64,000 bases of DNA, from positions 10,329 through 74,328 of IMG/VR virus record IMGVR_UViG_3300035034_001349, one strand, 5' to 3'. Positions within the stretch are counted from its first letter, which is position 1, and every line of letters starts with the position of its first letter. This document shows positions 7,398 through 57,303 of this stretch, piece by piece. The position numbers were made by a program, and so were the translations under genes. The stretch is from a virus. The notes below the pieces were generated by a model. That model was not told the DNA's origin. It saw only the letters and a list, made by a program, of their open reading frames with translations, and made no database searches.

Positions 7398-9664
7398 CTA
7401 AATAAATACATTATCTATTATAGATGTACCATCCTTTTGATATAGTAATGGTGATAAGAATTGCCCTTTGAGTCTCTCAAATGCTAAACTAACTGAAGGA
7501 CTCTTACTATTCTGTATTGCTGATGACACACGTAATACCTTGTATGGTGGAATCTTTTCACCAAGGAAATTAGGTTTATTTAATAAATTATCTGTATCTC
7601 TAATTAATTTACTTACAATTAACTCTGCATGAACACTATCTAAATTAATACCACTCTCTTGTATTAACTCTATAAATTTATTATGAATATCATTAAAATT
7701 ACTTAAACCTAAGTGATCTTTATTCTCAATTAATTTAAGTATTTTCTTTAATGGTTTAGATAGTTCATTGTTCTCCATTATAAACTTGAATAGAACATCC
7801 ATATCTGAGTACTTGATAGTGTTTATTTTAATAATACCGTCTACATTTACACTATTGATTCTTTCAAGTAATAATTCTGATGGGAAGAATGTTATAGGTA
7901 ACTCAATTAATTTTTCATCACCATCATCATTCTCTATATACATTTTATCGATAGCATAACTACTATGCTCATCATCCATGTATAAATCTTCTTCCTTTAT
8001 AATTATACTTACATCTTTTGTTATATTATCTCTGTTAATAAATACCATATTTCTATCTACAACAAAATACTTAGTAAACGTATTACTCCAATCAAGTTCA
8101 TCTGATACTGCTTGCAATAAGTGTTTAGCAGATAGTAATCTTTGTGTTATCTGTTCTGTTAAGAATAGCACTGCTATTATACCAATATGAAGGTTTCTAT
8201 TTATCTTAGCCATTTTACCATAGCAAATATCACATGCACCTTCATCTTCATTACAAGTAATAGGACTCCTAAGTTTTATAGTCTTGCCAATTAAATGATA
8301 ATAATCTTTATCAATTATTTTTAGACCACTATCTGTTATATGGTAACGTCCTAATACTTTCTTCAATGTGTCTTCATTAGTCACATCATATTTTAAATAA
8401 TGTTTAGTCTCACAATCTTCAATATCACTAAGTTTAGTATCAATCATTAAGAGTGATAACTTTCTGGTTAGATCGCTTACATTCATGTGAATTCGTTAGA
8501 CTCACACAGTTCTTTTATGAACTTCTATATGTTTCCATATAGGCTAGACTATATCTTTTCACAATATGAGATATTGTTTATTCTCCGTTTCGATTTAAGG
8601 GATTCTCACCCACGCCAATAACTTGCGTCCTACTCCTAATGCATCATATGATGCCAATGGGATAGTCGTTGAACCTTACTCTTATAAAAGAGTCTTGGAT
8701 GCTGATTGTCTTCACCACCATGTGTTAAGATTTCCCAGCAGTTAAAAGAATTTATTCTGAGCTATAAATCTAAAAAGTTTAGTATCTTATCTTCTCTAAA
8801 CTTTATATCTTTATTATTCATATTATATCTCCTCTAGATAATAATACGTGCGGTTAAGTTTAACCCAGATTTCCTTACTTGCTTATAATTTGTTATGATA
8901 GCCTTTCTAGCACCTGAAGCGTTTATAACAAAATCATCTACATTTCTCATTCCATTTATAAGACTAGTATTTACAATCTTCTCTAATATACTTCCATCTA
9001 ATCCTGGTTTAGCTCCAACTGCAATGGCATACTGTCTTAACTGTTTAACATTAACACCAGTACCACTATTTAGATAATTTTTCATTACATTATCTTCAGT
9101 CCTTAATATCTCTAATAATTCATCCAACTTACGATTACCCATATCTTCAATCTCTTTATATTCGATATTAGGTGGGAATTTGAAGTTTAATAAATTATAA
9201 AGGTCTTCATTCTTATTTGATAACTCTATTAGAGAGTATAGATTCATACTATTTCCATACAACACGTTGTATGTGCCTGAGATATCATCTAGTGTATTAG
9301 TAATATCTGAAATTATACCATTAATCTTTATGAATCCTTCTTCACTTTTACCGAACTTATCAATAATACGATTGTAATATTTCTCTAGATTACTTGATTT
9401 AAAGTTATTTGGGTCTGTTATAATAAAGTTATCATCTATACTATTACATTCAAATGTAAAGAAAGGTTTGAGTAATATTACATTAGTTACAAAATTTGCA
9501 AAAGGCATTTCATATGTTTTATCACCATTTATAACCTTTACCTTATCCTTTCTGTCACTAAATTTTTCTATAGACTCATCTACTATATGTTCAAGATTTG
9601 TTTCATAGTTATTGAGTACTAACTCCTCTAAGTTATATATCTTCAAAAAATCATCTCCATTCAT
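7398..9664 (-). CDS. rpoC: Non-virion RNA polymerase beta' subunit, C-half; spliced from exons 9664-8863 and 8473-7398 (625 aa)
   Basis: Splicing rebuilds the bridge-helix motif KSG-Y-LTRKL; also RSPITC...CDICYG zinc site, EQITQRLLSAKH trigger loop, SLAFE. Confidence 0.92.
8474..8862 (-). ncRNA. Group I self-splicing intron (389 nt)
   Basis: 5' exon ends in U and the intron ends in G. Core elements: P AACTGCTGGGAA, Q AATCAGCATCCAAG, R GTTCAACGACTA, S AAGATATAGTCT. P1 UCUGGGU/GCUCAGA has the U.G splice pair; P10 is TTAGAT/ATCTAA. Confidence 0.95.
8762..8821 (-). pseudogene. Intron L1 mini-ORF (19 aa), probable remnant of a homing endonuclease
   Basis: AGAGGAG SD then MNNKDIKFREDKILNFLDL*; the stop codon overlaps the internal guide sequence. 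Confidence 0.55.
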
Positions 9665-20827: not shown

Positions 20828-21520
20828 CTATTCACCTTCCCTAAATATTCTACTTTCATAAAGGTATACAGTTGAAAGATTATTAGTTGCTAGAGAAGAA
20901 ATTTTCTCTCTCATTTCTTCATCCTTGTTGTATCCATACTTAGGTATAAAGAATGACTTATTATAAGAATTAGTATTCTTAAGTACATCATATATGTTAT
21001 CCAAACAGTCATCAATAAATAAATCATATTCAATACCTAACTCATTTATAGCTTCAGACTTTTTAGTATCTCCATCTACTGAAATAAAGGTTATATTCTC
21101 AGTACCTAAATATTTAGCAACCCATCTTTTCTTATAATCTTCTGTACCTTCTATTACTTTAGTCACTATATAGATATGTTCAATCTCACCTCTATCAAGT
21201 AGTATTTTCAGAGTCATTCCGAAATTAGTTATTCTACAATTAGAGTAAAATTTATCATTATCTTTATATAACCCTAAGAATAAGTCAAATACTTCTTCAG
21301 GCAATTCTTTACCATTTGATAGCCAATTATTTAGATAATATTCATCTCTGTTTAAGACGTGCATCATACTATAATCAAAATCTAAGTCCATATATTCTGA
21401 AAAATGTGTCTTATTTTCCAATAATAAATATGTCCACAATGGGGATATAAGAGTTAATACCTCATCCATATCAGTTGCTATTTTCTTTTTATTTTTAAGA
21501 TTTGAAAGTTTCTCTAACAA
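20828..21520 (-). CDS. HAD-family 5'(3')-deoxyribonucleotidase-like phosphatase
   Basis: Motif I DMDEVL, motif II VTK, KKS, motif IV LFIDD, YGYN. Confidence 0.8.
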   Translation of the reverse strand: MLEKLSNLKNKKKIATDMDEVLTLISPLWTYLLLENKTHFSEYMDLDFDYSMMHVLNRDEYYLNNWLSNGKELPEEVFDLFLGLYKDNDKFYSNCRITNFGMTLKILLDRGEIEHIYIVTKVIEGTEDYKKRWVAKYLGTENITFISVDGDTKKSEAINELGIEYDLFIDDCLDNIYDVLKNTNSYNKSFFIPKYGYNKDEEMREKISSLATNNLSTVYLYESRIFREGE

Positions 21521-21595: not shown

Positions 21596-22381
21596 TTAGT
21601 CATTAAACATTCCTTTAATAGTACTCTTTTCAACTTTCTGTGTTTCTACAGACTCAGCTTCTTCATTCTTTTGCTTCTTATTACTTCTTGAAGAAATACC
21701 ACGTGTCTTCTTACTTCTAGAACCTTTAGCAATTCCGCCACGTACATTTCTTGAACTTGTTGATGCTTTTAAACTATAGTGTGAGTTGAATAAACCACCA
21801 GCAAATGAAATAGATGTCTTGATTACTTCATAGAATGATAAGAATTCTACATTAATTGCTAACTCATTACCTTCGCCAGTCTCTGGATCTACGTCTGTCA
21901 TTATTGTTTGGATTCTATTTAATTGGTGAGTATATTGGCTTTTAATTTCACCATTTTCATATACATAAATATTAATAATAATAATAGTGTTACCCTTTTC
22001 ATCAAGGTCAGATACAATTTCAAGTAATGAACCTGTCATATCTTCTTGATTTACATGGTTCAGTTCAGTCTGAGATATTTTACCCAAGAACATTAGGTTC
22101 AATGCCTTCTCTAATCTGATTAACTCAAATTGTGTTAATGAAAAGAAACCTTCATCATAAATTGTTGTACTACCCTTTTTCTCTAATTCAATCTTCTTAC
22201 CACTATCACTTAATGGAATAATTTTAATTAAAGTATTAATGTAGCCTTTGTCTTTATCTTCTCTTACGCCTACACTTAAAATCTGCTTATTATCATCACT
22301 ATATTCCCAATATGTTACATCATCCCTGCTGTATTTATAGTTTGGCTTATCGCTTTTTGTACCTTTTCCTTTTCTTGCCAT
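21596..22381 (-). CDS. Hypothetical protein (possible nucleic-acid binding)
   Basis: 261 aa, AGGAGG SD, basic tail; promoter variant AACT-ATTTAT-TA upstream. Confidence 0.65.
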   Translation of the reverse strand: MARKGKGTKSDKPNYKYSRDDVTYWEYSDDNKQILSVGVREDKDKGYINTLIKIIPLSDSGKKIELEKKGSTTIYDEGFFSLTQFELIRLEKALNLMFLGKISQTELNHVNQEDMTGSLLEIVSDLDEKGNTIIIINIYVYENGEIKSQYTHQLNRIQTIMTDVDPETGEGNELAINVEFLSFYEVIKTSISFAGGLFNSHYSLKASTSSRNVRGGIAKGSRSKKTRGISSRSNKKQKNEEAESVETQKVEKSTIKGMFND

Positions 22382-22439
22382 TGTTAAATTCCTCCTTAGA
22401 ATATTCTTCTCATTTGTAATAAATAGTTTAAATTAAATA

Positions 22440-22695
22440 AAAAATATGGGAACGCTACTTCCCATAATAAAGCTCTAAAGCTTTTTAAGATCTAAGTCTT
22501 AGCTAGTCATCACTCCCTAATAGTATGCCAAACACTTGCAATACTATAAAACGACTTAATCCCGCACTAGGCTTGGTGACTGCATAATTACATAAAACGG
22601 TTGGCGTGTACTCCACCAGTTTTACTATATACAGTTCTTAGGAGTGTAGCAATAGCAAGGTTTATAGCGGTGACTACTTAACCTTTATCTATCAT
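22440..22695 (-). ncRNA. Candidate structured non-coding RNA (about 250 nt)
   Basis: ORF-free and GC-enriched; early promoter at 22691-22709; nested stems; terminator ATGGGAAGTAGCGTTCCCAT-ATTTTT. Confidence 0.65.
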
Positions 22696-22711
22696 AATAA
22701 TAATATATATT

Positions 22712-24691
22712 TTAAAAGTCTATTATATTCGAGTAATATGTTTTCTGGTCTGTTAACTTTAGTTCTTTGAATCCTAGTGATTTAAGTATTATTAAACCAT
22801 GTCTAATATTATCCCCTACAATTTCATTAACTGCAATATAAGGTCTAATCCATTCAGGAATATTATCTACATTCTTTGGGAATGCAATAGTTGTAAAACC
22901 AAATCTACTTACATCAAAGCTAGGTTCACCTGGGAGTGGCTTTATACCATTCTCATCTAAATGGAATACTTCTTTCATTAATATCTTATATTCTTCTTCA
23001 TGACCATTTTCTAATAAATCTTTTAAGTCTTCTGGATTACCAGCATTCAATTTTAACAAGTTAATTTTCTCTGGTGGTGCGATTGGATCATTAGGGAATA
23101 ACTCATTATGAATGATAGTACCACGTAATTGAGCCATTCTATCAGGAAATGCATAATTGCTTGATGGATTAACTTTAAATGGTGTAGTAAACGTCATTTC
23201 ACCTTTAGCAAGACTCTCATTAACTTCAGCTTCAAATGCCTTAAATTCTTTTAGTACTCTAGATAGTGATATATCATCACTGCCTAATATTTCATCTTCA
23301 ATAACTTTTGTTAATACTTCTTCAACTCGCTTACTAACATTAGATTTCTTAATCGATAAGCCTTTCATATCAGTTATAGGTGGGTCTAACATAACACCTT
23401 CTCGTGATAATAGTCTACCTACATACTGTTTCTTATTTTCAGTAGACATAAACTTCTCGTATAAATACTCATTCTTCATATTTATTATGGGTTGCTTTTC
23501 TTCACTTAAGTTACAATTCTCTGTTAATCTCTTTAGTGATGCTTCTATAAAGTGAGTTAAGAAGTATACACCTATGTTAACTACACTTATAGTATCTTCT
23601 TTAGTATCTTCTACTTCAAATCTTTCAGATATAAATTCATAGAATGGATTCATATAGATAAAGTTAGAATCTGTATCTACTGTTAATATAGACTCTCTTT
23701 TATCTTTGATAGCACGTTCATATCTATCATATATACTATGGTCATGATATACAAATTCTTCAAGTAAATCCCATAGTAAATCAAGATTAGTAGATATTTC
23801 CTCATTAGCATCACCTGCATCAAGGAACTCTGTTCCGACTACATTACTTAAACAATTCATAGCCATATCACATGCATCAAGAAATTTATATATTTGATTC
23901 TTATAGTAAATTACATTACGTTGTTCTTGATTAAGTAGTGACACTAAATTCCGAACTTCCTCAAATCCTTCAGTATCTTTTACCATACCCTCTAGATAAA
24001 CTAATAACTCATCTTCATCTATGAATGAATCTTCTCTTATAATCTCACTAATTATAAATTCAGAGTCTATGATAACATCAGTCATAAATTGAAGCATTTC
24101 AGATACATTATTTAGTTTTATATTATTACTTAGAAATCTCTCAAAACTCAACATACTGTGTGTAATAATCTGAACTCCCGTATATGTTACTGAAGCCGCA
24201 ACTCTATTATTATAGAACTGACTTGTAGGCATACCTGATGCACCGTAGTATGAGTTTGCAAGTAATTTAAGCACTGAGCCTTGGAGTCTGTCTAACGCTT
24301 TTGCTAATTCTTCATTACCATCTTTCTTAGCTTCAAACATTCTCTGCTTGGCATCATTACGTTCACTAAGTAAATAGTCAAGCATGCTTGTTATTAAGTT
24401 ATTTGTTTCATCATGTTGCTTATAGAATACCCCGAAACCTGTTAGGATATCACCTTTCTTCATAAAATTATCAAGTAAATCTAGTAACTTGAATTTACCT
24501 TCTTTTTGTTTATAATCATTACTGAAGATAGCATCAGGTGATTCAAGCCTCTCATCAATTATAACATCTACTTGTCTACTTAATTCATCTTCATCTATAT
24601 CTGGTTTGCTTAGACGAAGACCATTCATTATTTGCTCCTTGTATTCATTAATAAATATTGAATCTTTATTCTCCATTGACACTCCTTTCAT
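22712..24691 (-). CDS. Family B DNA polymerase, polymerase (C-terminal) subunit
   Basis: Motif B KLLANSYYG, VTYTG, motif C VDTDS, KKQY, KGLSIKKS. Confidence 0.9.
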   Translation of the reverse strand: MKGVSMENKDSIFINEYKEQIMNGLRLSKPDIDEDELSRQVDVIIDERLESPDAIFSNDYKQKEGKFKLLDLLDNFMKKGDILTGFGVFYKQHDETNNLITSMLDYLLSERNDAKQRMFEAKKDGNEELAKALDRLQGSVLKLLANSYYGASGMPTSQFYNNRVAASVTYTGVQIITHSMLSFERFLSNNIKLNNVSEMLQFMTDVIIDSEFIISEIIREDSFIDEDELLVYLEGMVKDTEGFEEVRNLVSLLNQEQRNVIYYKNQIYKFLDACDMAMNCLSNVVGTEFLDAGDANEEISTNLDLLWDLLEEFVYHDHSIYDRYERAIKDKRESILTVDTDSNFIYMNPFYEFISERFEVEDTKEDTISVVNIGVYFLTHFIEASLKRLTENCNLSEEKQPIINMKNEYLYEKFMSTENKKQYVGRLLSREGVMLDPPITDMKGLSIKKSNVSKRVEEVLTKVIEDEILGSDDISLSRVLKEFKAFEAEVNESLAKGEMTFTTPFKVNPSSNYAFPDRMAQLRGTIIHNELFPNDPIAPPEKINLLKLNAGNPEDLKDLLENGHEEEYKILMKEVFHLDENGIKPLPGEPSFDVSRFGFTTIAFPKNVDNIPEWIRPYIAVNEIVGDNIRHGLIILKSLGFKELKLTDQKTYYSNIIDF

Positions 24692-24725: not shown

Positions 24726-25147
24726 TTAGATAGATACATCCCACGATTTACCAGTAAACTTATTCTTAGTATCACATATCTCACACTTTGTTTTACTAAG
24801 TATAAATACTGTTATAGTATCACCCTTTATTATATTACCACACTTGATATGTTTTAGGGTAAAAGGTCTGTCATATGATAACGCTGTTAGTGGTTCGTAT
24901 TCGTCGCTATCTAACATTTCTAATAAGAATTTATGCTCATTAGTCCTCTTTAATCTTGAACACTCTGGACACCGTCCACCTGAGAATAAGAAACTATTAG
25001 GTATAACTTTCCAAGAATGACCACAGTAATTATGTCTTACCATTAATTTTGTATGTGAATTAGTGTATGAATCAATGACACTATATTCATCCCAGCTAAT
25101 TCTTCAACTTCATTTTCAAATTCTTCTTGTGTTTTAGCTCTGCTCAT
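24726..25147 (-). pseudogene. Zinc-ribbon repeat protein (homing-endonuclease DNA-binding repeat-like), frameshifted
   Basis: MSRAKTQEEFENEVEELAG, then a frameshift at GGG (25091-25093), then DEYSVIDSYTNSHTKLMVRHNYCGHSW...CPEC and a second repeat HIKCG...CEIC; no nuclease domain seen. Confidence 0.6.
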
Positions 25148-56611: not shown

Positions 56612-56851
56612 CTATTCATTCCGCATACTATTATTAAAATCAAGTATTTTCTGTCTACTCTCTAACAATACTTTCAAATCTATATTTTCAGGAGAATCCT
56701 TAAACGTTAATACACTATTCCCATCTATCTCATTCATATCTTTATCAAATAATCTTTTCTCACCATCAACAATTATAAGTATACCTGCATATGTGTCAAT
56801 GTCATCTTTAACAGTGTAATCTACTACTTCAAATTCAAGCATATAATTCAC
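56612..56851 (-). CDS. Small acidic hypothetical protein
   Basis: 79 aa, AAGGAAG SD. Confidence 0.6.
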   Translation of the reverse strand: MNYMLEFEVVDYTVKDDIDTYAGILIIVDGEKRLFDKDMNEIDGNSVLTFKDSPENIDLKVLLESRQKILDFNNSMRNE

Positions 56852-57284: not shown

Positions 57285-57303
57285 ATCATTATTATAATAT
57301 ATG
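57285..57303 (-). promoter_or_regulatory. Early promoter motif facing a non-coding region
   Basis: CATATATTATAATAATGAT. Confidence 0.7.

Follow-up and report, generated by a model that had tools for sequence, protein, structure and literature searches.

Jumbo phages are known to produce small RNAs (sRNAs) from the 5'UTRs of their genes. The described cases include sRNA001-011 of phage 201phi2-1 and the sRNA upstream of gp182 in phiKZ, and one of these RNAs is conserved across genera (PMC11512511). In 201phi2-1, premature termination within 5'UTRs accounts for eight of the 11 sRNAs that were mapped by ONT-cappable-seq (PMC11512511). For phages of the AR9 type, the early promoter consensus was experimentally defined in AR9 as AAATATATATTAT-(6N)-G(+1) and is thought to be recognized by the virion RNA polymerase, and the late promoter consensus is AACA-N6-TA (PMC5312081).

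The window analyzed in this study, a stretch of 64,000 nucleotides, comes from a viral contig of 74 kb in IMG/VR and represents a fragment of an uncultured jumbo phage related to the Bacillus phages AR9 and PBS1. Thirteen DNA runs from metagenomes of lakes and salt lakes contained its sequence, and no RNA run containing the stretch was found among the sequencing runs listed. When contigs from four DNA runs were compared with the stretch, the RNA region described below was covered in one run only, where it was identical and free of variants, and the diverged contigs from the same four runs overlapped the polymerase gene only. The DNA polymerase of the window shares 38% identity with the AR9/PBS1 polymerase over 98% of its length and aligns with it through to its own last residue. 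Among the viral and metagenome contigs in the collections read, the best polymerase identity was 44-47%, with no close relative there, and the closest relative, P0002 on a 5 kb contig from ENA, shares 66% identity. Directly upstream of the polymerase gene, a 105-aa ORF (24726-25043, minus strand) partially matches an HNH endonuclease (positions 217-308 of 607 in phrog_559), and it may represent the remnant of a homing endonuclease.

The features that follow one another on the minus strand at this locus are listed below in the order in which they would be transcribed.

22712-24691, minus strand: divergent family B DNA polymerase gene, 659 aa (Pfam PF20286, 4.6e-39, and PF00136), with the stop codon TAA at 22714-22712
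22700-22712, minus strand: core AAATATATATTAT of an early promoter of the AR9 type (for the virion RNA polymerase), which overlaps the stop codon of the polymerase gene
22693, minus strand: predicted transcription start (+1), a G, six bases past the promoter core as in the AR9 consensus
22467-22692, minus strand: ORF-free, GC-enriched body of the predicted leader RNA (six-frame stops; GC content; no Rfam match)
22439-22466, minus strand: intrinsic terminator with the stem UAUGGGAA/UUCCCAUA, the loop GUAGCG, and six U, found by a terminator scan
22417-22428, minus strand: near-consensus late promoter AACT-ATTTAT-TA with one mismatch, in the AACA tetranucleotide, found by a scan for motifs upstream of all genes
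22391-22397, minus strand: Shine-Dalgarno sequence AAGGAGG of the next gene
21596-22381, minus strand: conserved 261-aa gene with a Whirly/PUR-alpha-like fold, assigned from orthologs, AlphaFold2, and Foldseek
20828-21520, minus strand: ortholog of AR9 g151, a 5'(3')-deoxyribonucleotidase (BLASTP E 2e-30, 33% identity; phrog_20022)

The initial annotation of this DNA had described a stand-alone, structured RNA of about 250 nt, with an early promoter immediately past the stop codon of the DNA polymerase gene, a GC-enriched body devoid of ORFs, and a terminator of its own. These sequence elements were borne out. The core at 22712-22700 matches the AR9 early consensus at 13 of 13 positions and is followed by G22693 at the +1 position, as an AR9-type early promoter is defined. 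About 12 other genes in the window are preceded by the same core motif, which is far more often than in shuffled sequences. These other early promoters lie almost always 28-64 nt from the start of their gene, compared with 312 nt between the leader promoter and the next ATG. Late-type motifs of the form AACA-N6-TA, usually AACA-N4-WW-TA, were observed 30-75 nt upstream of many genes in the window, and the polymerase gene carries AACACATGATTA at -33. Since the early and the late motifs both recur before the genes of the window, the two AR9 promoter classes are conserved in this distant lake phage.

The terminator is formed by a hairpin at 22466-22445 with an 8-bp stem that includes three G-C pairs, a 6-nt loop, and a following UUUUUU tract. 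In a scan of the whole window, its stem was the shortest among 10 minus-strand terminators, the other nine having stems of 10-12 bp or more, with stem length serving here as the sole measure of terminator strength. It is the only strong terminator on the minus strand between 20 and 26 kb, and hence it would be expected to end the transcripts of the polymerase operon as well. From 22693 to about 22440, the predicted transcript is an RNA of ~250 nt (253 nt). The locus therefore has the layout of a 5'UTR-derived sRNA, with a promoter, a terminator within ~250 nt, and a position upstream of a coding sequence: the start is at 22693, the terminator at 22466-22439, and the ATG at 22381.

The body of this predicted RNA contains stop codons in all six frames. 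Its longest ORF encodes 37 aa from a GTG start, and the mini-ORFs in it have a poorly spaced Shine-Dalgarno sequence; no protein homolog was found for its longest open stretch of 44 aa. With a GC content of 0.39 against a mean of 0.284 in the window, the body lies at the 99.8th percentile of 200-nt windows, at the level of a true group I intron found elsewhere in the window. Neither terminal inverted repeats nor direct repeats, as signs of a mobile element, were found at the element, and no second copy of it was found in the 74-kb record.

Comparison with related phages showed how this arrangement departs from theirs. In the relative L004, an early promoter located right after the polymerase stop codon drives an ortholog of the 261-aa gene through a UTR of ~43 nt, and the same layout was observed in L013, L086, L087, and L101, with UTRs of 40-61 nt. 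Hence at least five relatives, L004 included, share the post-polymerase early promoter. The gap after the polymerase gene was mostly shorter than 120 nt among 85 relatives, compared with 330 nt here, and the element was absent from the same position in the relatives. Since the promoter of the relatives drives the next gene through a short UTR, the promoter at 22712-22700 is, on this sequence comparison, the ancestral promoter of the downstream gene. By the same layout, the body of ~225 nt together with the terminator (~250 nt in all) is a lineage-specific insertion into the leader of that gene. In another lineage, represented by L109, L110, and L151, a distant homolog of this gene is immediately preceded by a long structured element. 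The AR9 counterpart of the second downstream gene, g151, directly follows the AR9 polymerase gene, and it is this polymerase gene that has an annotated early promoter.

The 261-aa gene itself has no Pfam or PHROG match. Its ortholog lies directly after the polymerase gene in L004 (43% identity) and in the complete relatives L007 and L011 of ~300 kb. An AlphaFold2 model built from a 16-sequence alignment reached a pLDDT of 78.6, and a Foldseek search with this model retrieved WHY1/2/3, PBF-2, PUR-alpha, and MRP1/2 at E values of 1e-4 to 1e-3, in addition to phage proteins named Whirly. Past the folded domain, the protein continues with a disordered, basic linker rich in G, S, and K and ends in a C-terminal helix. 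Because of its Whirly/PUR-like fold, the modeled protein is probably a single-stranded DNA- or RNA-binding protein (SSB) of the replication module, and it is referred to here as SSB-like. As an ORFan conserved beside the polymerase gene in several uncultured jumbo phages, it is a candidate for the replication SSB of this clade.

The reading that we favor, at a probability of roughly 45%, is that the element is a leaky, attenuating 5' leader RNA, bounded by the terminator and placed between the early promoter and the SSB-like gene. Transcription of the unit, partial termination, and any regulatory effect are predictions from the DNA. The injected virion RNA polymerase would start at G22693, and most of the resulting transcripts, together with those arriving from the polymerase operon, would stop at the comparatively weak hairpin at 22466-22445 and yield an early RNA of ~250 nt. 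The fraction that reads through would supply early mRNA for the SSB-like and deoxyribonucleotidase genes, and both genes would be fed later by the near-consensus late promoter at 22428-22417. The main action of the element would be in cis: as an attenuator or insulator, it would determine how strongly the polymerase is expressed relative to the SSB-like gene, and the terminated RNA would be either a by-product or a 5'UTR-derived small RNA.

Two observations point to partial rather than complete termination. Downstream of the terminator, no early promoter was found before 17999, and between the terminator and the SSB-like gene no consensus promoter was found, the AACT-N6-TA sequence being the only promoter-like motif there. 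The ortholog is under an early promoter in L004, and AR9 g151 directly follows a polymerase gene with an early promoter. Early expression of the SSB-like and deoxyribonucleotidase genes in this phage would thus require read-through. Additionally, a stem of 8 bp, the shortest in the window scan, fits a leaky stop.

The predicted fold was examined next to this arrangement. The whole transcript folds at -68.3 kcal/mol (z -2.41), a value equaled by 3 of 200 dinucleotide shuffles. For the 186-nt core (22680-22495), z was -0.46 and 55 of 200 shuffles folded equally well, which is no better than chance. The difference between the two values indicates that much of the fold signal comes from the terminator and small flanking hairpins. 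One domain stands out in the predicted fold:

22511-22646, minus strand: domain closed by CACUCC (22646-22641) pairing with GGGAGUG (22517-22511)

The closing helix of this domain has pairing probabilities of 0.89-0.99. The domain encloses a long arm (22635-22579) in the minimum-energy fold, as well as a hairpin at 22546-22520 that was seen in alternative folds only; a 12-nt inverted repeat was also noted in this domain. Of the nested helices proposed in the initial annotation, CACUCC/GGGAGUG and the long arm were thus recovered, but the outermost closing helix, UAGUCA/UGACUA, reached a probability of only about 2%. The wider claim of a structured RNA fared poorly, with a core that folds like shuffled sequence and a whole transcript at z -2.4.

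Membership in a known RNA family was addressed with Rfam 15. A permissive scan of 22300-22850 (551 nt) gave a single match at noise level, snoR116 (18.9 bits against a gathering score of 47, E 0.65), and with nothing near a gathering score the initial statement that the RNA could not be assigned to a known family stands. This negative can be trusted, as the same mode of search recovers the group I intron at 8525-8808 on the minus strand (RF00028, 74.2 bits, E 6e-19, when a 700-nt stretch is scanned). Both Rfam scans of the whole window missed that intron owing to their speed filters, and whole-window negatives are therefore unreliable in this AT-rich genome. A group I intron was also considered for the element itself and rejected: the sensitive scan gave no match to RF00028, by which the conserved P3-P8 core is recognized, and the element starts only once the polymerase reading frame has closed, the alignment of the polymerase with its AR9 counterpart extending to its last residue. 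In the related phage L110, located on the same contig as L067, the polymerase gene is split by two group I introns (968-1178 and 2020-2305; 57.2 and 74.6 bits). ARAGORN found no tRNA or tmRNA genes (0) in the window.

Searches for homologs of the RNA went against the initial annotation. No homolog was found among GenBank phages by blastn and megablast, among 81 loci of relatives by nhmmer and blastn, or among exact k-mers of the element, three of which were compared with IMG/VR and one with 185k prokaryote genomes. BLAST against the full records of five relatives likewise showed the element to be absent, and across the homolog searches the promoter motif alone was matched. A single-sequence covariance model of the 149-nt core (R1) had no match outside the window itself. 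As no RNA homolog was found, there is no sign of selection on either the sequence or the structure.

These results bear on the original proposal that the RNA is a dedicated product in its own right. In this reading, an early noncoding RNA would work in trans on a partner from the host or the phage, whether as a decoy, scaffold, ribozyme, or base-pairing regulator, and the next gene would have a late-type promoter to itself. An ORF-free unit is indeed flanked by a promoter of perfect consensus and by a canonical terminator, its GC content is exceptional for noncoding DNA of a 28% GC genome (99.8th percentile), and the helix that closes the core domain has a predicted probability above 0.9. A separate promoter for the next gene had also been proposed, and a late-type motif is indeed present at 22428-22417, from which the UTR would be 36 nt; it is, however, only near-consensus, with AACT in place of AACA. 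Should the AACT motif be a working promoter, the downstream gene could be independent and the RNA truly stand-alone. Yet the core fold equals shuffled sequence, no Rfam family was matched, no homolog was found in GenBank phages, in IMG/VR, in the metagenome loci, or in five relatives searched over their full records, and relatives lack the element at the same position. Antisense targets in the window do not exceed 14 nt of complementarity, an AT-rich match at chance level. We consider a stand-alone trans-acting RNA rather improbable on this balance. What stood of the original proposal is a discrete early unit of ~250 nt, a sound prediction, without an Rfam family; what counts against its independence is that the unit sits in the leader of a conserved gene.

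The insertion may alternatively have no function at all, being foreign or decayed DNA in the SSB-like leader that brought or created a hairpin downstream of the old promoter of that gene, so that any RNA made from it would be without a role. Its lineage-specific and single-copy occurrence, the lack of any conservation found, and a core folding energy at chance are consistent with such a spacer, and the high GC content could mark a recent foreign origin rather than selection. The same high GC content also sits oddly with a decayed spacer, and a terminator placed among replication genes would carry a cost if it were neither tolerated nor put to use. The perfect consensus of the promoter has moreover been maintained, nothing resembling a decayed gene was seen (stops in all frames, no protein homolog), and the k-mers tried were unmatched in bacterial genomes or viral contigs. 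A functionless insertion is unlikely in our view, though a quarter or so of the weight would not be misplaced on it, and the leaky attenuating leader is preferred.

A leader that responds to a signal was considered as well, in which a ligand or the Whirly-like protein binds the leader RNA and modulates termination in the manner of a riboswitch or an operator. In phage T4, the SSB encoded by gene 32, an OB-fold protein, autoregulates through the leader of its own mRNA, acting on translation without a terminator. The order of elements at our locus would suit such control, as a promoter, a body of ~225 nt, a terminator, and a spacing given in this layout as 59 nt precede the RBS of a gene for a nucleic-acid-binding protein. 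In the fold of bases 1-240, the loop and the 5' half of the terminator are paired with RNA bases 44-55 at -12.5 kcal/mol, an arrangement mutually exclusive with the terminator hairpin. However, this pairing was matched by 17% of dinucleotide shuffles and by 6% of windows from the genome, and the antiterminator is a putative one that does not rise above the shuffles. The other lineage with a conserved structured element before the distant homolog of the SSB-like gene lends some plausibility to the idea, but the leader showed no conserved aptamer, and neither a riboswitch nor a T-box of Rfam matched it. A conserved sensor domain with covariation, by which a riboswitch or attenuator is recognized, was not found either, as the element has no homolog and is absent at the syntenic site in relatives. 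The parallel with T4 itself depends on a protein assignment made only at the level of the fold. A responsive leader is improbable and the least favored of the readings considered.

The initial annotation had ranked this element as the best candidate for an undescribed system in the window, and this ranking was not upheld: the promoter in relatives belongs to the downstream gene, the element is absent from the records of five relatives, and the core fold is at chance. The feature is real as a predicted unit of transcription, and a new structured-RNA system is unsupported by the evidence. That the locus represents a new class of early phage regulatory RNA is a long shot, whether as an attenuator that responds to a ligand or protein and gates a Whirly-like SSB or as a decoy acting in trans, which the injected virion RNA polymerase of a jumbo phage of the uracil-DNA type would make abundantly within minutes of infection.

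Other RNAs were encountered in the window and in its relatives. A second early promoter with a predicted start at 57287 on the minus strand has the same initial bases, GATAGATAA, and opens a stretch of 445 nt without a long ORF. Close to the promoter of this unit (57287-56895), at a distance of ~30-75 nt from the start, lies a hairpin with a U-run, and a strong terminator at 56932-56904 precedes a gene at 56842. Its 393-nt RNA folds at -99.4 kcal/mol (z -6.4; none of 100 shuffles), which is far more convincing than the leader, and it includes two small ORFs of 29 and 44 aa.

In five phage contigs, an 84-nt cloverleaf resembling a tRNA was found in this analysis:

L110, 3196-3279: tRNA-like cloverleaf
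L109, 1405-1488: tRNA-like cloverleaf
L151, 5715-5798: tRNA-like cloverleaf
L143, 875-958: tRNA-like cloverleaf
L148, 12910-12993: tRNA-like cloverleaf

This element consists of an 8-bp acceptor-like stem, three hairpins, the conserved loops CGUAU and UAAYCAAU, and a 3' (C/U)CCA end, with compensatory changes at nine of its 21 pairs across the five contigs. Rfam did not call it, and neither did ARAGORN, which was applied to L109 and L110 only. In L109, L110, and L151 it is located directly before the RBS of the distant SSB-like homolog (hhalign probability 64%, E 7e-5), behind a late-type promoter. Kinship of the leader with the post-polymerase element of L109 and L110 was rejected, as the two show no similarity and the covariance model of the relatives' element (R2), run with filters off, had no match in the leader region or anywhere in the window.

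If made as predicted, the leader would be an AR9/PBS1-group example of the promoter-proximal terminated leader RNAs that have so far been mapped in phiKZ-like phages, and it would show that an inserted leader can throttle the transcription that enters a replication gene. At present, the element is one sequence from an uncultured phage, with no conservation. Its main value is that of a clean, testable transcription unit with a perfect promoter and a simple terminator, and of a pointer to the Whirly-like gene adjacent to the polymerase. As RNA leads, the more strongly structured unit at 57287-56895 and the covarying tRNA-like element of the related phages seem more promising than the leader itself.

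Among known systems, the leader resembles a group I intron in being ORF-free, GC-enriched, and of similar size, the true intron at 8525-8808 having a GC content of ~0.34-0.40, but it is located after a stop codon rather than within a gene. Like the tRNA-like element of the relatives, it lies upstream of an SSB-like gene, and in L109 and L110/L067 that element also occupies the post-polymerase gap; the leader nevertheless has no similarity to it in sequence or structure, and the compensatory changes belong to the relatives' element. The comparison with T4 gene 32 holds insofar as both are leaders upstream of a gene for a phage single-stranded nucleic-acid-binding protein in a replication module, whereas the leader here has a terminator, the protein is Whirly-like, and its binding to the leader is putative. 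The order of promoter, leader, intrinsic terminator, short spacer, RBS, and gene is that of the attenuator and riboswitch platforms of Bacillota, from which the locus differs in lacking a conserved sensor, a significant antiterminator, and an Rfam cis-regulatory match. Compared with the sRNAs of 201phi2-1 and phiKZ, which were mapped experimentally, the leader is predicted only, has no homolog, belongs to an AR9-like phage, and is at the upper size limit of that study. It shares with them a phage promoter, a terminator within ~250 nt, a position upstream of a gene, and a giant phage with multisubunit RNA polymerases of its own, and it is best filed as an unconserved case of a promoter-proximal terminated leader or 5'UTR-derived phage sRNA.
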